NCBI GenBank assembly: GCA_965213645.1
Contig: CBDBZX010000010.1
Span: 93,712 to 157,711, forward strand
DNA length: 64,000 bases
Reading direction: 5' to 3'
Source of the DNA: Trueperaceae bacterium
GTDB taxonomy: Bacteria > Deinococcota > Deinococci > Deinococcales > Trueperaceae
This document shows, in pieces, positions 2,544 to 19,795 of this stretch; position 1 is the stretch's first letter; each line of letters opens with the position of its first letter. Both the position numbers and the translations under genes were made by a program. A model generated the notes under the pieces. It did no database searches and was not told the origin of the DNA. It saw only the letters and a list, made by a program, of their open reading frames with translations.

Positions 2544-3938
2544 CTACCTGTCGCACTTCTTCGCCACCAGACCGTTCGAGCCCGTGTACACGAACGCATC
2601 GGTAATCCAAGCGCCGTTCGAGAGTTTGTCCCAAATGCGCGTCGTCCCGTAGGGTCCGGTGATCGCCTCGCCGTTCGGTTCTTGACAGATGATGGTCACG
2701 GGCGCGTTGCCGCCAAGCTGTCCGACTCTGCGGTAATTCGTACCAGGGCCACTCCGCAGATTGTAAATACCGTCCGCCAGCGTTCTCGCCTTCACCCCTG
2801 CACTGCTACCGTCACCGCACTTCGCTCTCGCCTTTCTGAGGTAGCGCCGCCAGGGCCAGTTCTCACCGGGGTCGGTACGGGTCTCGGGCTGCAACTGTCC
2901 GTGCCCGACGATGCGCACCCGGTTGAGCGGTACGCCGTTACGTTCACTAATCGCGCAGATGAGCTGCGCCGAGGTATCGATGAGCCCGGCTGAGAAGGTG
3001 CCCGAGGCGTACCCAGCGTGCTCGATGCCGATGGTGAACTCGTTCGTCCGGTCACCGTTGCGCCCGCAGAACTTGTCGCGGTTCAAGCTGCAGCGGTAAG
3101 GGGCGGCGATGTGCCAGGCGGTGTTGTCTTCGCTGACGAGCTGCGACACTTCGGAGCCGGATTCGTTGACGACGTAATGGGCGCTAGCGGGTACGTTCGG
3201 GTTAGTGAGGTGGCTGACGCAGCCTGCGTAGGAGCCCTCGCAGGTGTGAATGATGACCATGAGGGTTTTCGCGTCGCGGCTGTCGTAGTTGGATGAGGGG
3301 TTCCAGACAATGGGCGGGTAGAGGTTGCTCTGCTGCGGCTCGAGCTTCGGGGAGGGCGGCAAAACGAACTGGGGTTTGATATCGCGCTGGGGCTCCAAGG
3401 TCGCTACACGCTCGCCGTCTCTCTCGACGTCCGCCCCTTCTCGTAAAACGCGGTAGACCTCGTTGTGAACGTAGTAAGCTTGCCAGTCCTCATCCTCGAT
3501 ATCGCTATAGCGAGCCACAGCGCTCGCCCACGCCCCTACGTCGCTGCGGTTTATTGCCGCTTCGTCCGCGTAGGCGCTCAGCAGCGCCGCCGCCGCGCGG
3601 ATGTTCGCGTCGGGCTGAGCACGCGCCGCTGCCTCTGACACGTCCGCTAGGGCTGCGCCGCGTGCCAAGCGCTCGCCGCGCAGCGCCATGATGCCGAAGG
3701 CGGGCGCGGTTTCGTGTCTCGCCTCGCCGCGCACCATCTGCCAGCGCGTTTCGGCGTAGCCGATGGCTTTGAGCAACGCGGTCGGCACGCCGAACTCCGC
3801 GCCCGCCTCGGCGAAGAGGGTGTCGAGCTGGCTGGCTGGCGGCGGCGTTGTCTCGGACGGGACATCGGGGGAGGTTACGTCGGTGCTACACGCGGCTAAA
3901 AGGAGTAGGGAGCAAACAACTGCAATTCGTCGCAACAT
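2544..3938 (-). CDS. Lipoprotein peptidoglycan hydrolase: SLT-like lytic transglycosylase + N-acetylmuramoyl-L-alanine amidase (Amidase_2/PGRP type) + C-terminal SH3b-like module
   Basis: Signal peptide and lipobox MLRRIAVVCSLLLLAACS (start taken at this Met; the ORF extends to 3980). SLT-like LLKAIGYAETRW...FGIMAL. Amidase_2-like IIHTCEGS...SAHYVV...NTAWHIA...IGIEHAG...GHGQL...TDPGENWPW. Module IYNLRSGPGTNYRRVG...WDKL...KKC. Confidence 0.8.
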   Translation of the reverse strand: MLRRIAVVCSLLLLAACSTDVTSPDVPSETTPPPASQLDTLFAEAGAEFGVPTALLKAIGYAETRWQMVRGEARHETAPAFGIMALRGERLARGAALADVSEAAARAQPDANIRAAAALLSAYADEAAINRSDVGAWASAVARYSDIEDEDWQAYYVHNEVYRVLREGADVERDGERVATLEPQRDIKPQFVLPPSPKLEPQQSNLYPPIVWNPSSNYDSRDAKTLMVIIHTCEGSYAGCVSHLTNPNVPASAHYVVNESGSEVSQLVSEDNTAWHIAAPYRCSLNRDKFCGRNGDRTNEFTIGIEHAGYASGTFSAGLIDTSAQLICAISERNGVPLNRVRIVGHGQLQPETRTDPGENWPWRRYLRKARAKCGDGSSAGVKARTLADGIYNLRSGPGTNYRRVGQLGGNAPVTIICQEPNGEAITGPYGTTRIWDKLSNGAWITDAFVYTGSNGLVAKKCDR

Positions 3939-4006
3939 AATAAGGTTTCCTCTCGAGAGCAGACTTAGCGCCACACTCAAGCGTCCCTGAGTGTGGCGCG
4001 TATAGG

Positions 4007-4780
4007 CTAGAAACGGATGAAGGAGAGACCAGCAGCGGAGATGCGCCGCGTGCCGTAGGCGTACGGTTTCCAGTTGTACTCCTCGACGGTGATGTCTCCG
4101 TTACCGTGCACCTTCGCCACGTAAGCGACGTGCCCGTAACCCAGCGAGCCACGTTGATACGCCTCCCAGTGGGCGATGTCGCCGACTCTCGGCTTTCCGG
4201 CGACGCGCACCCCGGCGGCCCTCGCCGCGTCGTCCCAGTTGTTCGCGTTGCCCCAATGGACGCCCCGAAAGTAGTTGTGAAACTTGACGTTTTTGACTTT
4301 GCGGACGCGCCAGGTCGCGAACGAGACGCACTGACGGATGTAGAAGTTCCAGGGGTCGACGCCGCTCGTCGAGCCGTTTTTGTAGGGGTAGTTGTCGCCG
4401 ATGATGCGTCCTTGAGTTGGAGACGGCTTGTGACCTTTGCACCAAGGCGCGACACGGTTCATCGAGCCGGTGTAGACGTAAGCGTCGGAAATCCACTTGC
4501 CGCTTGCAAGCTTGTCCCAGAGTCTCGAGTAGCCCCACGGTCCCTTGTGCCGCGTGCCCCGCGCGTGGCAGACGATCTTGACCTCTTGACCGCCCGTCTT
4601 CTGCCCGACGACGCGGTAGTTGGTGCCAGGTCCGCTGCGGAGGTTGATGGTATGCCCTTTTGCCACGGTGCCGGTGGCGGCTTGTGCCTCTAGCTCGGCA
4701 GATTGTGCGGGGGCGTCAACGGTGCCGCAGGCGCTCAGAAAGAGGAGCGCGGCGAGGGCGAATAAACTCAGCTTGTTCAT
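4007..4780 (-). CDS. Lipoprotein with N-terminal SH3b-like module and C-terminal CHAP-domain peptidoglycan amidase/endopeptidase
   Basis: Lipobox LLFLSACG. Module TINLRSGPGTNYRVVGQKTGG...WDKLASGKWISDAYVYTG..RVAPWC. CHAP-like catalytic Cys context FYIRQCVSFATWRV and His context GDIAHWE...GHVAYV. Confidence 0.8.
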   Translation of the reverse strand: MNKLSLFALAALLFLSACGTVDAPAQSAELEAQAATGTVAKGHTINLRSGPGTNYRVVGQKTGGQEVKIVCHARGTRHKGPWGYSRLWDKLASGKWISDAYVYTGSMNRVAPWCKGHKPSPTQGRIIGDNYPYKNGSTSGVDPWNFYIRQCVSFATWRVRKVKNVKFHNYFRGVHWGNANNWDDAARAAGVRVAGKPRVGDIAHWEAYQRGSLGYGHVAYVAKVHGNGDITVEEYNWKPYAYGTRRISAAGLSFIRF

Positions 4781-14173: not shown

Positions 14174-15022
14174 ATGCCTCTCGTCTATCTCTTAGCGCTC
14201 CTCGTGCTCCTCGCCGCCTTGATAGGGCAGCGTCGCCCTTCTACGGACCTCGCGGGAAGAGGTGAGCGCGACTGGCAGCCCGACCTCGCGAGACAAGCCT
14301 ATGGAACCTTGGGGGGTGACACCTTGACACTCCACAACGTTCGCAACAGCCGCTATCCTGACTCCGGTGGGTCCGTTGATGTGGTGTGGGAAACGCGCCG
14401 CTACGACCTCAGTAAGGTGACACGCCTCTGGTTCCTCATCGCCTCCTTCAGCCGCTTCGAGGCCGTCGCCCACACCTTTTTGAGCTTTGAATTTGAAGAT
14501 GGTCAGTTCTTAGCGGTGTCGGCGGAGGCTCGAGTTGAGCAGGACAAGGAATATAACCTCGTGGAGGGCGTGCTCCGACACTTTGAGCTGAGCTACGTGT
14601 TCGGCGACGAGCGCGACCTCGTGTTGCGCCGCACCTTATATCAAGACACCGAAGTGTACCTCTATCCGCTGATCACGCCGTCCCGTGAGGTTCGCAGCTT
14701 GCTCGTGCGCATGGTTGAAACGGCGAACGAGCTGCGCGAACACGCCCGCTTCTACAACAGCGTCACGGAAAACTGTACGAGCGTCCTGCGCGAACACGCC
14801 AACGAGGTGCGCCCCGGCTCCTTCCGCTCGTTTGCACTCGCTCAGGTGATGCCCGGTATCTCAGACCGGGTGCTCTACCATAGAGGCTGGATCGACACCA
14901 ACTTGCCCTTTGAAGAGATACGCGAGCACTTCGCTATTCAGGAGAAGACGCGACATTGCGAGGTGAATGAGGGGTTCTCGAGCTGCATCCGGAAGGGGCT
15001 GCAAGAAGGCGTAAAGAGGTGA
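14174..15022 (+). CDS. DUF4105 (Lnb N-terminal-domain-like) membrane-anchored protein
   Basis: N-terminal TM helix. AHTFLSFEFEDGQFLAVSAEAR...YNLVEG...ELSYVFGDERDLVLRRT...FYNSVTENCTS matches my recollection of DUF4105. Confidence 0.55.
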   Translation: MPLVYLLALLVLLAALIGQRRPSTDLAGRGERDWQPDLARQAYGTLGGDTLTLHNVRNSRYPDSGGSVDVVWETRRYDLSKVTRLWFLIASFSRFEAVAHTFLSFEFEDGQFLAVSAEARVEQDKEYNLVEGVLRHFELSYVFGDERDLVLRRTLYQDTEVYLYPLITPSREVRSLLVRMVETANELREHARFYNSVTENCTSVLREHANEVRPGSFRSFALAQVMPGISDRVLYHRGWIDTNLPFEEIREHFAIQEKTRHCEVNEGFSSCIRKGLQEGVKR

Positions 15023-15702
15023 GCGCCGTGGCGGAACTGTGGCGTATCATCTGGAGCAGCCTCACGCTAGACTGGGACTTATGGCGCGACCTCGTCGCCA
15101 ATCCTGATGCAGTGCGCTTCCAGTTCGCGGTTCTCATCGTCGTTTTGGCAGGACTCTCTGAAGCCGCCGCGCAAAGCGTGATCTTGTTTCTCAATCAGGT
15201 CAGGCCGCACCGCTTCATCGCCAGCCTGGTTATCAACGCCTTTCTGTTCACCTTCGGCTACGTCTTCTACGTGCTGAGCATCAACCTGGTCGCCCGCGTT
15301 CTGTACGGCGCACCCCGCCCTAATGAACTCATCTTCGACAGCATTGCCCTGACCTACGCGCCCCTTATCTTGAGCTTTTTAAGCCTCATCCCCTACTTCG
15401 GGCGGGGCATCAGGATCGTTCTGTCGGTCTATCACGCGCTGGCGCTGCTCATCGCGGTGCGCGTCACGTTCGCCCTGGAGCCGCCCCAACCCGTCGTCTG
15501 CGTCGCGGTGGGCTGGGTGCTCCTCACCCTCCTGAGCGGGACGATAGGTCGCCCCATCACCGTCTTTGCGCGTTTCTTGCGCAACCGCTTCGCGGGCAAG
15601 CAGCTTCTGAACTTAGAAGAGGTGCGTCAGCGCTACCGCGAGCGGCTCACTCAGGGTGACGCACAGATGCGTAATCAAGCTGAAAGTCAGGGCGAAGCGT
15701 GA
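15019..15702 (+). CDS. Integral membrane protein (about 5 TM helices, Yip1-like topology)
   Basis: GTGA start/stop overlap with the upstream gene. Hydrophobic helices throughout. Confidence 0.5.
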   Translation: MSAVAELWRIIWSSLTLDWDLWRDLVANPDAVRFQFAVLIVVLAGLSEAAAQSVILFLNQVRPHRFIASLVINAFLFTFGYVFYVLSINLVARVLYGAPRPNELIFDSIALTYAPLILSFLSLIPYFGRGIRIVLSVYHALALLIAVRVTFALEPPQPVVCVAVGWVLLTLLSGTIGRPITVFARFLRNRFAGKQLLNLEEVRQRYRERLTQGDAQMRNQAESQGEA

Positions 15703-16739
15703 TCACCACCTTGGTGCTCTTCGCGCTAGCCGCACTTTTCCTCATGGGATTTCTCGCGCCCTTCGAGACGTTTGGCTGGTGGGCGGGCTGGTACGGGGAG
15801 AAGCCGGGCGAGCGAGAGTTACCTGACCCCGACGAGGTCCCGCAAACGGACGCCGCACAGTTTGTCGTGTACTTGACGGGCATCAACGGACTCAACCCGG
15901 AGGAATATACACCGAGTGAAGAGGTCTTTTTGAGAGCACTCCAAGCGCGACTGCCCGATGTTCATCTGGTGGACGACGCCTACCCCTACGCGGCGAGCAA
16001 CCTAGCCTTGACGGGCGAGCGCTTCTTCGGCTGGTTCTGGCGGCGGCTCGGCCATATGAGGGGTAAGGGGGCACTCAGCCTCATCACTTACCTCATCCAC
16101 GTGCGCAACATCTGGCAGGTACTAGTCTCCTCGGACAACCGCTTCGGACCGCTCTACAACTACGCCACCGCGCAGCACGTCCTTATCAAGCTTTTGGAGC
16201 ACGGCTACCCGCTCGGCTCGGGCACGCCCGTCACTTTAATTGGCTACAGCGGCGGCGGGCAGATTTCGGCGGGGGCCGCGCCACTTTTAGAGGAAGCCGT
16301 GCAAGCGCCCGTGCACGTCATCTCGATAGGCGGGGTGATGAGTTCGAACCGCAACATCTTGGACTGCGACGGACTGACCCACCTCTACGGCTCCAAAGAT
16401 ATGGTGCAGCGTCTAGGCTACCTCTTCTTTCCGCAACGCTGGCCCTTCTTGCGTTGGACCGCCTGGAACAAGGCGCGGCGTAGAGGGATCATCCGGCGCG
16501 TTTATACGGGACCGATGGTCCATGTCGGCGTGGGGGATTACATGGACCCGAATATGAAACTGGATACCGGGCAGAGCTATCTCGAGCGGACCTTAGAGAT
16601 CATCACCGAACGCATCGAGGAGTTTAGAGCGGTGCGGGGAACGGGACTGAGCGTGAAGCCAATCGGGGTGAAGGTTTATAGGGACCTTCAGCGTACCGGG
16701 CAGAGTGAAGGTCAGGGTACAGGTCGGGGTACGAGGTGA
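15699..16739 (+). CDS. Membrane-anchored alpha/beta-hydrolase-like protein, unknown specificity
   Basis: GTGA overlap with the upstream gene. N-terminal TM helix. Candidate nucleophile elbow LIGYSGGGQ. Confidence 0.45.
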   Translation: MITTLVLFALAALFLMGFLAPFETFGWWAGWYGEKPGERELPDPDEVPQTDAAQFVVYLTGINGLNPEEYTPSEEVFLRALQARLPDVHLVDDAYPYAASNLALTGERFFGWFWRRLGHMRGKGALSLITYLIHVRNIWQVLVSSDNRFGPLYNYATAQHVLIKLLEHGYPLGSGTPVTLIGYSGGGQISAGAAPLLEEAVQAPVHVISIGGVMSSNRNILDCDGLTHLYGSKDMVQRLGYLFFPQRWPFLRWTAWNKARRRGIIRRVYTGPMVHVGVGDYMDPNMKLDTGQSYLERTLEIITERIEEFRAVRGTGLSVKPIGVKVYRDLQRTGQSEGQGTGRGTR

Positions 16740-17155
16740 AGAGCCTCAACATGATCTGGGGCAACGTCTACTTGCGGGCGTTCTTGCTTGCCACCGCCGC
16801 CGTGCTGCTCGTGTACCTCTTGAACGTCACCCGGCTCGCTTGGCGCAGCTTCCTCATCGCCCAGGGGTATAACCTCTCTACCGAGACGCAATCTACGAAA
16901 CAGCTCGAGTCGTCCTTAGCAGCAGGCATCACCCATATCCGCAGCCACGTTGACATCGAGATGCTTTTAGACCTCGCTACGTATGGAGGTGCTAAGGTCA
17001 TGAAAGATGGGCAGTACGGTTTAGAGGTTGGCAAAAGGGCGGACCTCGTGGTCTTGCCTGGTAACACACCTGCTCAAGCCGTCATCGAACAGCCACCGCG
17101 CACTTTCGTCATCAAAGATGGACAGCTTGTTGCGAAGGGCGGAAAGCTCACATAA
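16736..17155 (+). pseudogene. Amidohydrolase (cytosine-deaminase-like) remnant fused to an N-terminal TM segment
   Basis: 139 aa. GITHIRSHVDI runs directly into a C-terminal amidohydrolase tail ATYGGAKVM...GLEVGKRADLVVLPG...VIKDGQLV. The several-hundred-aa metal-binding barrel expected between them is absent. Confidence 0.5.
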
Positions 17156-17169
17156 ACCAGGGAGGATTT

Positions 17170-18321
17170 ATGAGTCGCACATCTACTATCACAAGAACCA
17201 TCCTTCAAGGAACAGGCGTCCTCGCAGGGGGAGCCCTCGCCGCAGCGGGCGGCTGGTGGCTCTACAGCAGGTTCGGCATTGAGCATAATGCGAACTTGCC
17301 GCCCGCTATAGACGCAGAGCGCAAGGGCTTCACCTCTCGAGCCGCAGGCCGCTTGAGCTATTATCACGACACGAGCGGAAGCGGCACGCCCCTCGTGCTC
17401 CTGCACAGCGTCAACGCCGCTGCCAGTGCTTTCGAGATGAAACCGCTCTTTAAGCACTTTAGAAACGAGCGACCTGTTTACGCCCTCGAGTTACTTGGCT
17501 TCGGCTTCTCGAACCGCGCAAAGAGGGACTTTACACCTGAGCTTTTTACGGAGGCGGTGCTCGAGTTCTTACGTTCTCAAATAGGCGAGCCTGCCGACGT
17601 CGTCGCCCTCTCCCTTAGCAGCGAGTTTGCAGCGCGGGCGGCGCTCGAAGCGCCCGAGTACGTCAACTCTCTCACACTCATCTCGCCCACCGGCTTGGAT
17701 GAGCAGGCTAGAGACGGTGGCAACGAGACATTTTATACCGTCGCCTCAAACCCTCTTTGGGCGCGGGCGTTCTACGACCTCATCGCCACACCCGCCAGCA
17801 TCCGCTACTTCTTGCAGGGGAGCTTCGTCGGTGAGGTGCCAGAAGATTTAGAGCGTTACAGCTACCTCAGTGCGCATCAGCCGGGTGCGGAGCACGTACC
17901 CTTACGCTTTATCAGCGGCAAGCTGTTCACCCCGCAGGTGCGGGAGCGCGTGTACGAACACTTGAGCGTGCCGTCTCTTGTGGTCTTTGACCAGGACGCT
18001 TTTGTGAGCTTCGAAGCGCTGCCGCTACTGCTCAATGCCAATTCAAACATACGAGCGGTGAGGCTTACCCCGTCGCGCGGACTGCCGCAGCTCGAGGCTC
18101 CAGAACGCACCGCAGAGGTATTGAGTGAGTTTTGGCGAGGTTTAGCAGAGCCTTCCTCGAGCCAAAAGTCTGTACGCACGGTCCACAGCGGCTTGGCTCA
18201 TAAGCGTGGCGAACGGGAAATACCTAAAGACAGAGGGTTTGACGATTCGCTTACACTCCTAAATGGGGGCTACACCTTTATCTCCAAACGCTGCGACGAC
18301 CTCCAAATGGACGTGTTCTAA
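17170..18321 (+). CDS. Alpha/beta-fold hydrolase whose reading frame continues without a stop into the N-terminus of a CYP152 P450
   Basis: PLVLLHSVNAAAS, ALSLSSEFAA and a typical C-terminal ...PQLEAPERTAEVLSEFW. Then a linker and the P450 N-terminal motif IPKDRGFDDSLTLLNGGYTFISKR before the TAA at 18319-18321. Confidence 0.7.
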   Translation: MSRTSTITRTILQGTGVLAGGALAAAGGWWLYSRFGIEHNANLPPAIDAERKGFTSRAAGRLSYYHDTSGSGTPLVLLHSVNAAASAFEMKPLFKHFRNERPVYALELLGFGFSNRAKRDFTPELFTEAVLEFLRSQIGEPADVVALSLSSEFAARAALEAPEYVNSLTLISPTGLDEQARDGGNETFYTVASNPLWARAFYDLIATPASIRYFLQGSFVGEVPEDLERYSYLSAHQPGAEHVPLRFISGKLFTPQVRERVYEHLSVPSLVVFDQDAFVSFEALPLLLNANSNIRAVRLTPSRGLPQLEAPERTAEVLSEFWRGLAEPSSSQKSVRTVHSGLAHKRGEREIPKDRGFDDSLTLLNGGYTFISKRCDDLQMDVF

Positions 18322-19473
18322 ACCCGGTTGCTCCTACAAAAAACCATCTGTATGCGCGGACGGGACACTGCCGAGCTGTTCTATGACCGGGAGCGCTTCG
18401 TGCGCTCGGGGGCAGCACCTAAGCGACTGACTCTGACCCTCTTCGGTAAGGGCGGCGTCCAGGGGCTTGACGGCGAGGCGCACATACGCCGCAAAGCGAT
18501 GTTCATGGCCCTCATGTCTAAAGGCGAGCTTCAGCGCATGGCGGATTTGACCGCTGAGCAGTGGCGTGTTTATGCCCAAAGGTGGGCGGGCGCAGGGCAG
18601 GTCGTCCTCTTTGACGAGACGATGGAACTGCTTTTCCGGGCAGCGTGCGAGTGGGCAGGCGTGCCGCTTAGCGAGGACGAGGTAGCGCGGCGCACCCGCG
18701 AGATGGCGGACCTCATCTCCTCGGCGACGGCTATCGGGCCGCACTATTTAGCAGGACGGCTCGCCCGGCACGACGCCGAGCACTGGGCAGGTGGACTGAT
18801 TCAAGAGGTGCGGCGTGGAACGCTGATACCACCTTCAGGAACGGCGCTCGAGCAAATTGCGCTCTTTCGAGATGGAGACGGCAACTTCTTGAGTGAACAC
18901 ACCGCCGCCGCCGAACTCCTCAATGTGGTCCGCCCGGTAGTGGCGGTGTCTCGCTATTTGGTCTTTTGCGCCCACGCTTTACACGAACACCCCGAGTGGC
19001 GCGAGAGGTTGCGTGAAGACGAGCGCGACGTGGAACCCTTCGTACAAGAGGTGCGGCGCTTCTACCCATTCTTCCCCTTCGTCGCTGCCCGCGTGAAAGA
19101 AACCTTTTACTGGCGCGGTTTCCGCTTCGAGAAGGGAACACGCACCCTCTTAGACCTCTACGGGACGAACCACGACGTCAGGTTGTGGGAGGAGCCCGAA
19201 GCGTTTGAGCCCGAACGCTTCCGCAACTGGCAGGGCGACCCCTATACGCTCATCCCGCAAGGGGGCGGCGACCACTATTTGAATCATCGCTGCGCCGGTG
19301 AATGGCTCACCATCGAGGTGATGAAAGAGGCGGTCAAGGCGCTGACCCGCGCCATCACCTACGACGTGCCGAAGCAAGACCTGACGCTCGAGCTTTCAAA
19401 GATGCCCGCTCTGCCAGAGAGCCGCTTTGTCATCAATCATGTGCGGTTGACGTCGACTCACGCAGCTCGCTGA
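18193..19473 (+). pseudogene. CYP152-family fatty-acid peroxygenase P450 (P450BS-beta/OleT-like) interrupted by an in-frame TAA at 18319-18321
   Basis: ORFs 17170-18321 and 18328-19473 are in the same frame. DSLTLL...F*TRLLL..., NVVRPVVAVS (Arg-Pro hallmark), HRCAGEWLTIEVMK heme loop. Candidate independent start TTG at 18193. Confidence 0.7.
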
Positions 19474-19623
19474 GCAGAACGCTGTAGGGATAGCGATGAT
19501 GACAACTGCCTTACCGACCTCTTTCGGTGAAATACTGTGAACGATCTCAACCTCACACTTTTTGCCGTCGGCCTCCTGACACTTGGACGCCGGGTCGAGT
19601 TACGTATAAGTTCCGTGCTGAGT

Positions 19624-19699
19624 TATATAGCAGGTATACCCCTAGAGGCGGGGTACTATATAGCGTTTCCACGTTTCATTGCTACAGCAATGAAACGTG
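19624..19699. terminator. Two adjacent hairpins between the convergent P450 and ABC permease genes (candidate bidirectional terminator)
   Basis: Imperfect tatatag...ctatata hairpin (19624-19662) and a perfect 13-bp stem cacgtttcattgc / gcaatgaaacgtg (19670-19699). Confidence 0.5.
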
Positions 19700-19795
19700 C
19701 GAGCGGATGCGAGAAGAAATAGACACAGTCAGTTGGTGCAGCGAAGCGTGGAAGTGCTAATAGTCGTACTGCTCGAGGAGTGTAGCGCACTCCGG

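Follow-up and report, generated by a model that had tools for sequence, protein, structure and literature searches.

Does a single nonsense codon divide what used to be one gene, and is the part behind that codon still in use? The question is raised by positions 17170-19473 of a 64,000-nucleotide stretch of Trueperaceae bacterium DNA (the whole stretch is called the window hereafter), where an earlier note, made from the letters of the sequence, had described an alpha/beta-hydrolase that reads in frame, except for one TAA, into a cytochrome P450 of the CYP152 fatty-acid peroxygenase type. All elements of this locus given below lie on the forward (+) strand. An ATG-initiated open reading frame (ORF) of 383 amino acids (aa) was called at 17170-18321 and is terminated by TAA at 18319-18321. 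Past this codon, the same frame is open from 18322 to the TGA at 19471-19473, which adds 383 codons plus TGA. Thus, the hydrolase and the remainder of the P450 do share one frame, of 768 codons altogether, as had been claimed. By ORF calling, Pfam, and alignment with structure chains, the first ORF comprises, from the N- to the C-terminus, a hydrophobic helix, an alpha/beta-hydrolase fold, a linker, and the initial 35 residues of a CYP152 P450. It is recorded for the window's own genome as the 383-aa protein P0240. As judged from the comparisons that follow, the locus descends from a single gene that encoded the hydrophobic helix, the alpha/beta-hydrolase, a flexible linker, and a complete CYP152. 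We hold with high confidence that an ancestral fusion was struck by a genuine nonsense mutation. The window allele is then a nonsense-split copy, the P450 half of which is either still used as a separate chain or was lost very recently.

The sequence on both sides of the stop was analyzed by alignment with CYP152 structure chains. With the stop read as Gln, residues 349 (nucleotide (nt) 18214) to 767 aligned end to end with 6fyj (E-value of 1.4e-142) and with P450BS-beta, 1izo (8.6e-133). The alignments covered chain residues 3-415, with full-length matches from 1e-107 to 1e-142, and E-values this small exclude chance as the source of the homology across the stop. As observed, the alignment ran uninterrupted over the stop site. 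The 35 CYP152-homologous residues that precede the TAA and remain on the hydrolase ORF, REIPKDRGFDDSLTLLNGGYTFISKRCDDLQMDVF (18214-18318), correspond to residues 3-37 of 1izo and 7-41 of 6fyj, in agreement with the earlier claim that the N-terminus of the P450 sits on the hydrolase ORF. The stop site itself falls on residue 38 of 1izo, a Gln, as the earlier note had given for P450BS-beta, and on a Glu in 6fyj. Against the CypC equivalog of NCBIfam (NF053744), the P450 with the stop as Gln scored 590.7 bits, just below the 600-bit cut-off.

The rest of the P450 (18322-19473) is free of any further lesion, and the two hallmarks expected of it, the Arg-Pro pair of the I-helix and the HRCAGEW heme loop, are both present. 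The Arg-Pro pair, which stands in the place of the usual acid-alcohol pair and is the carboxylate-binding signature of CYP152s, lies at 18931-18936 within NVVRPVV (18922-18942), in a column that is invariant with P450BS-beta and OleT. The heme-ligand Cys codon of HRCAGEW was placed at 19291-19293 by sequence and alignment. Equivalents of Phe79 and Gln85 are also conserved, the latter in GVQGLDG as in P450BS-beta; in the alignment with OleT and P450BS-beta, His is absent from the position of OleT His85, where Gln is found instead. The OleT and P450BS-beta sequences in this signature alignment are provisional; the P450BS-beta one agrees with the 1izo alignment. Because the Gln85 equivalent is present and not the OleT His, hydroxylation would be more likely than OleT-style decarboxylation for the intact enzyme. 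His85 is not known to be an absolute determinant of OleT-type decarboxylation.

Uninterrupted copies of the gene were found among its relatives, confirming the proposed natural hydrolase-CYP152 fusion. Locus L008 (protein P0391), from a metagenome-assembled genome labelled uncultured Trueperaceae (Deinococcota), is 69% identical and has an uninterrupted ORF of 775 codons with the same module order. L046 (P0392), 86-88% identical, is intact as well, and its upstream amidohydrolase is the same as that of the window; the protein has been called as 840 aa from an upstream start and is probably ~767 aa long from the Met that aligns with the window start. Intact fusions are also encoded by P0393 (771 aa), P0394 (788 aa), and P0395 (775 aa), which are 68-71% identical. 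The earlier note had held that a stop codon and a canonical P450 start in every orthologue would speak against a fusion, and the orthologues just listed do not have that arrangement.

Other copies of the gene are not intact as sequenced. L002 (P0014; 87-88% identical), on a contig whose name marks 2x coverage, reads through the stop site, and its hydrolase is frameshifted upstream. In L004 (P0123, L004 6001-7407; 80% identical, 468 aa), the hydrolase domain has been deleted, and the N-terminal hydrophobic segment is retained and joined straight to the linker and an intact CYP152. In its layout, P0123 resembles eukaryotic microsomal P450s with their N-terminal anchor, and a type I restriction-modification system lies upstream of it. 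L003 (6001-8354 of a 676-kb contig whose name marks 11x coverage; ~70% identical) reads through the window stop site but has a TAG where window 18577 and its counterparts elsewhere are CAA, CAG, or GAG, followed by a frameshift. These L003 lesions mean either that the P450 module has decayed a second time, independently, or that the assembly is in error. Stops that appeared at 18874 and 18889 in L002 and L008 were rejected as an artefact of the pairwise mapping of DNA; the encoded protein is continuous at both loci.

The codon at the stop site shows a nested distribution. It is GAG in L003, L004, and L008 and encodes Glu in P0393, P0394, and P0395; it is CAA in L002 and L046; and it is TAA in the window and in L001, whose DNA is 94.5% identical to that of the window over 7.4 kb, with differences that lean to synonymous sites. 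Because the codon history is nested in the order GAG, CAA, TAA, the sequences point to one C-to-T transition, from CAA (Gln) to TAA, in the ancestor that the window and L001 share. A change from CAA to TAA had been suspected before, and both of the closest intact relatives, L002 and L046, have CAA at exactly this codon. From the earlier description as a recent nonsense mutation, the nonsense change is retained; the recency sits uneasily with a stop that is shared by two genomes and with a downstream ratio of nonsynonymous to synonymous substitution rates (dN/dS, omega) of ~0.2.

Fusions of this kind are rare. In an exhaustive search of 1.84 billion representatives, CYP152s were almost always standalone proteins of ~415 aa; a scan of Joint Genome Institute (JGI) metagenomes returned standalone P450s only, and a genome scan returned 1 fused locus (L008) among 26; the species representatives do not include the window's own genome. 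Hydrolase relatives at 68-76% identity are standalone too and have no P450 beside them, for which reason an origin of the fusion from a widely conserved gene pair was rejected. A further protein, P0283 (787 aa, on a 9,945-bp JGI contig and named 'fatty-acid peroxygenase'), has an alpha/beta-hydrolase followed by a CYP152, which is the module order of the window fusion. However, its hydrolase is canonical and different, being an Abhydrolase_1 protein with GHSWG, Asp, and GAGH; its P450 is ~45% identical, and its N-terminus is long and Arg/Pro-rich, with a hydrophobic segment. In a phmmer search, the hydrolase of P0283 gave no match to that of P0014. P0283 is probably an independent fusion event, and the sequences show at least one natural joining, probably two, of an alpha/beta-hydrolase fold with a CYP152.

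Next, the N-terminal half of the window gene was characterized. Its ATG is preceded by a Shine-Dalgarno sequence, GGGAGG at 17160-17165, which ends 4 nt 5' of it (sequence reading and motif scan). The Gly/Ala-rich hydrophobic segment at the N-terminus (~aa 10-32, 17197-17265) showed a Kyte-Doolittle maximum of 1.15 over aa 10-28 and was modelled as a long helix of aa 4-36; it is a possible membrane anchor. A twin-arginine translocation signal was considered and rejected; P0123 has a KRR motif at its N-terminus, but the twin arginines are not kept in other members. The alpha/beta-hydrolase fold domain (~aa 50-326, 17317-18147) was assigned by Pfam, AlphaFold2, and Foldseek. Residues 75-317 match Abhydrolase_6 (2.4e-11) and Abhydrolase_1 (5.6e-8), and the AlphaFold2 model, with a predicted local distance difference test score (pLDDT) of 87.3, retrieved alpha/beta-hydrolases in Foldseek with E ~1e-14. 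The linker (~aa 327-348, 18148-18213) differs among relatives in the alignment of fusions. In the AlphaFold2 model of the full fusion P0391, the region equivalent to the linker had pLDDT < 50, the linker plus the P450 N-terminus had pLDDT < 55, and the predicted template modelling score was 0.50.

The catalytic residues of the hydrolase were conserved only in part. Ser148 (codon 17611-17613), in the nucleophile elbow A-L-S-L-S-S after strand beta5, is flanked in the model by strand 142-147 and helix 150-160 and is invariant in 33 family members. Asp274 and Asp276, which are invariant and follow strand 269-273, provide the acidic triad residue after strand beta7. His236, located in the cap loop of the model, is invariant as well. 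The hydrolase family has more than 100 homologues, including ANT_19180 of Anaerolinea thermophila, in which Ser148, Asp274/276, and His236 are invariant and G-L-P occupies the His loop. This residue pattern suggests either that the triad His has moved or that the role is not hydrolytic: His236 might, on the model, replace the missing catalytic His, or the domain might instead be a binding or scaffolding module. The hydrolase matched no curated esterase or lipase family; its best NCBIfam score was 61.6 bits against a cut-off of 307, which reflects generic fold similarity. The name 'pimeloyl-ACP methyl ester carboxylesterase' given to hydrolase homologues by JGI is a generic label.

By analogy with known enzymes, the anchored hydrolase module of the intact protein would free or deliver a fatty acid at the membrane, and the P450 module would then oxidize that fatty acid with H2O2. 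An anchored hydrolase that passes a fatty acid to a tethered peroxygenase is therefore proposed as a plausible working of the intact enzyme. It is opposed by the loop after beta8, where no trace of the canonical catalytic His was found: the sequence there is S-R-G304-L305-P306 throughout the family, and P0283 has G-A-G-H at that place. Since the hydrolase is without this His, we can only infer the hand-over of substrate. Accordingly, of the earlier idea of a lipase or esterase feeding fatty acids to the P450, the alpha/beta-hydrolase fold holds, and the lipase or esterase nature is unproven, given the missing canonical His and the missing match to a curated family.

What, then, becomes of the P450 half in the window allele? 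In the reading that we favour, the first ORF would still yield the hydrolase, now with a 57-residue tail made of the linker and the 35 P450 residues. Ribosomes would terminate at the TAA and restart at the TTG at 18328-18330, which is the first in-frame candidate, 6 nt past the stop, and the likeliest route, or at the second candidate, the ATG at 18352-18354, and the covalent fusion would thereby be turned into a two-chain system. We give an even chance to continued translation of the P450 half in a chain of its own. The recorded P450 of the window's genome, P0121 (373 aa), begins at ATG 18352. Reinitiation at a TTG at 18193, offered in the earlier note, does not serve; this codon precedes the TAA in frame, and a start there would yield a 42-residue peptide, with no rescue of the P450.

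The case for continued use came from substitution patterns. The window and L001 form a recombination mosaic, with ~3% divergence over most of the locus and 13-17% in the blocks 17890-18069 and 18730-19089. In both divergent blocks, the window and L001 are as distant from each other as either is from L002, and the blocks look like recombinational imports on sequence comparison. In block 18730-19089, the window resembles L004 (HEHPEW...ERD) and L001 resembles L002 (HKHPEW...TY). Because of this mosaicism, the pooled dN/dS between the window and L001 (0.23 for the P450 after the stop) was set aside, and values were calculated on clonal (non-recombinant) segments and per branch. Between the window and L001, the P450 after the stop showed 24.5 synonymous (Sd) and 17.5 nonsynonymous (Nd) differences (omega 0.207, p 3.7e-6 vs neutrality), and the hydrolase showed Sd 13 and Nd 9 (omega 0.216, p 5e-4 vs neutrality). 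On the window branch only, the values were Sd 9.5 and Nd 8.5 for the P450 (omega ~0.28, p 0.004) and Sd 9 and Nd 3 for the hydrolase (omega ~0.10, p 3e-4). As a baseline, whole segments of L002 and L046 were compared, giving Sd 121, Nd 67, and omega 0.124 for the P450 and Sd 91.5, Nd 50.5, and omega 0.131 for the hydrolase. From these values, we infer that the body of the P450 after the stop is still under purifying selection. If the TAA is shared by descent, the P450 would have been selected while carrying it and hence would still be made.

The strongest competitor of continued translation is a young pseudogene, in which the TAA has put an end to the P450, the sole remaining product is the hydrolase, burdened with a useless tail, and the P450 sequence is decaying. 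In that account, the P450 looks constrained because the stop is far younger than the mean divergence of the window and L001; the TAA was spread by homologous recombination within one recombining species. We regard it as a serious possibility that falls somewhat short of an even chance. A nonsense codon in the core of a domain means loss of function by default, and a number of observations both favour this account and weigh against the reading with a separately translated P450. A motif scan found no Shine-Dalgarno sequence before TTG 18328 or ATG 18352, no promoter-like site was found near the restart codons, and RNA folding gave no unusual structure after the stop; signals for a restart of translation are thus absent. 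Recombination has been frequent, with two imported blocks in 2.3 kb, and if a young TAA allele has been moving between strains in this recombining locus, the dN/dS argument is invalid. Omega is mildly raised, that of the window-branch P450 being about twice the intact-versus-intact baseline of 0.12-0.13. Conserved residues have been replaced on both branches. In the window only, Gly stands for a clade-conserved Glu in LLNEGY (18265-18267, 5' of the stop) and Lys for a clade-conserved Pro in VPPQDL (19372-19374); replacements seen only in L001 are Ile for Thr adjoining the stop and Ser for Pro in IPQGGG. These unique replacements may reflect relaxed constraint or, for L001, read errors. Adjoining genes have been deleted in the window. 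The P450 module has an independent stop and a frameshift in L003 and hence seems to be dispensable for one lineage or more. Moreover, the relatives at 68-76% identity are standalone hydrolases, evidence that the hydrolase functions with no P450.

The protein that a restart would yield raises a further difficulty for continued translation. The longest P450 products that begin after the stop start at profile position 41 to 49 of the 416 in NF053744 and do not amount to a complete-fold coding sequence. A product from 18328 or 18352 is thus without 40-48 N-terminal residues of the P450 fold; P0121 is without CypC profile positions 1-48, and the product from ATG 18352 scored 523.5 bits. Helix A and the opening strand of sheet 1 are made of these residues, without which the P450 may fail to fold.

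Nevertheless, three results limit the pseudogene account. The largest tract at the TAA that is free of single-nucleotide polymorphisms between the window and L001 measures 55 bp, with differences flanking it at -52 and +4 nt. So short a tract bears no mark of a recent transfer of the allele, and the strain-specific differences at these two positions limit any transferred tract to <=116 bp. The clonal-segment omega of the P450 (0.21) equals that of the hydrolase and, compared with the baseline, leaves room for a pseudogene phase over no more than ~10-17% of the time since divergence. In addition, no second stop or frameshift was found in the window's 1149 nt past the TAA.

Returning to continued translation of the P450, one variant would also account for the missing N-terminus. 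The 35 P450 residues on the C-terminus of the hydrolase could bind in trans to a P450 body translated on its own. Such a split P450 would explain the constraint on codons on both sides of the stop; if it were true, the fold would be completed and the two enzymes would be held together noncovalently. We consider this variant unlikely.

Readthrough or suppression of the TAA, by a suppressor transfer RNA (tRNA) or a leaky context, would have the full fusion made at reduced dosage and would explain the constraint on both sides of the stop without a truncated P450 having to fold, but it is quite improbable. TAA is a common, ordinary stop in the window, where it ends 15 of the 46 long ORFs, four of which share the TAA-A context of the present stop, and among bacterial stop codons UAA is the least leaky. 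No tRNA gene or Rfam element was found in the window, and the RNA after the stop is not structured.

Finally, a sequencing or assembly artefact, with CAA as the true codon and an intact 768-codon fusion, is very unlikely: the difference is one base and low-coverage contigs of the related assemblies are error-prone (frameshifts in L001 and L002), but the identical TAA is present in L001, a distinct genome that keeps ~2 kb of upstream genes missing from the window; the neighbour genes are whole in the window where those on the noisy L001 contig (21 gap events) are fragmented; the visible errors in such contigs are frameshifting indels and not substitutions; and the sample that gave L001 also gave L002 and L046, both with CAA in a near-identical context. 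The TAA is taken as a real mutation, and the sequencing error that the earlier note had allowed for is set aside.

The fusion was then compared with known systems. The CYP152s P450BS-beta (CypC, CYP152A1), P450SP-alpha, CYP152K6, and OleT-JE (CYP152L1) resemble the window P450 in full-length alignment and signature residues. However, they are standalone, soluble proteins of ~415 aa, whereas the P450 here makes up the C-terminal part of a protein of ~770 aa whose N-terminus is hydrophobic. In P450BM3 (CYP102A1), the CYP116B class, and MpaDE, the P450 is covalently joined to a partner enzyme, as in the present fusion. The fusion partners in BM3 and CYP116B are redox domains, and the hydrolase half of MpaDE, which belongs to a fungal natural-product pathway, is not known to be of the alpha/beta-hydrolase type. 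Unlike BM3 and CYP116B, the present gene has an alpha/beta-hydrolase fold N-terminal to a peroxide-driven CYP152, for which no redox partner is needed. Fungal MpaDE is a natural P450-hydrolase pairing (bioRxiv 10.1101/524025). No report of a natural alpha/beta-hydrolase-CYP152 fusion was found in the open-access literature, and this gene family is a natural multidomain P450 with a partner not reported before.

The proposed logic, in which a hydrolase frees a fatty acid and a CYP152 converts it, is that of engineered cascades from triglycerides to alkenes, where a fungal lipase and OleT were co-expressed or mixed (PMC4355466, PMC7075034). However, those cascades are artificial, whereas here the modules are naturally fused, the hydrolase is not a recognised lipase, and the P450 is of the hydroxylase-like Gln85 type. 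PlaF (6i8w) and ABHD6 (7ots), which are N-terminally anchored, fatty-acid-releasing lipid hydrolases, share the long N-terminal helix and the alpha/beta-hydrolase fold with the window protein and were found at Foldseek ranks 3 and 10 (E ~1e-14), with a sequence identity of only 13-19%. Many unrelated alpha/beta-hydrolases score equally, and the canonical His is missing in the window hydrolase.

CYP152 peroxygenases are much studied as biocatalysts that convert fatty acids to hydroxy-acids and terminal alkenes. The intact genes L008/P0391, L046/P0392, and P0394 and the unrelated P0283 are open to direct expression. Intact fusions could reveal a natural source of CYP152 substrate and offer engineers a linker and an order of domains taken from nature. 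The window allele itself presents an evolutionary puzzle, that is, a nonsense codon inside a domain with the sequence past it still under selection.

The surroundings of the gene were also inspected. Upstream, a 139-aa ORF at 16736-17155 (with 16862-16959) combines aa 1-37 of an AI-2E-family transporter with aa ~92-124 and aa 325-397 of an amidohydrolase. As L001 has whole copies of the two genes (1756-2847 and 2965-4155) and L046 has an intact amidohydrolase, this ORF is read as a deletion scar, with ~2 kb lost directly upstream of the fusion gene in the window. Farther upstream, the ORF at 14174-15019 carries an Lnb_N (N-terminal periplasmic) domain (1.1e-33), and the ORFs at 15019-15702 and 15699-16739, located 3' of it, had no Pfam match. 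Downstream, a perfect 14-bp inverted repeat with a 2-nt loop (19670-19699, assigned to neither strand) lies between the convergent P450 and ATP-binding-cassette permease genes and is a possible terminator. This hairpin is nested in a 22-nt imperfect inverted repeat within the intergenic region 19623-19760, where a ~35-bp segment is placed differently from L001 (gap events at 19624 and 19760).

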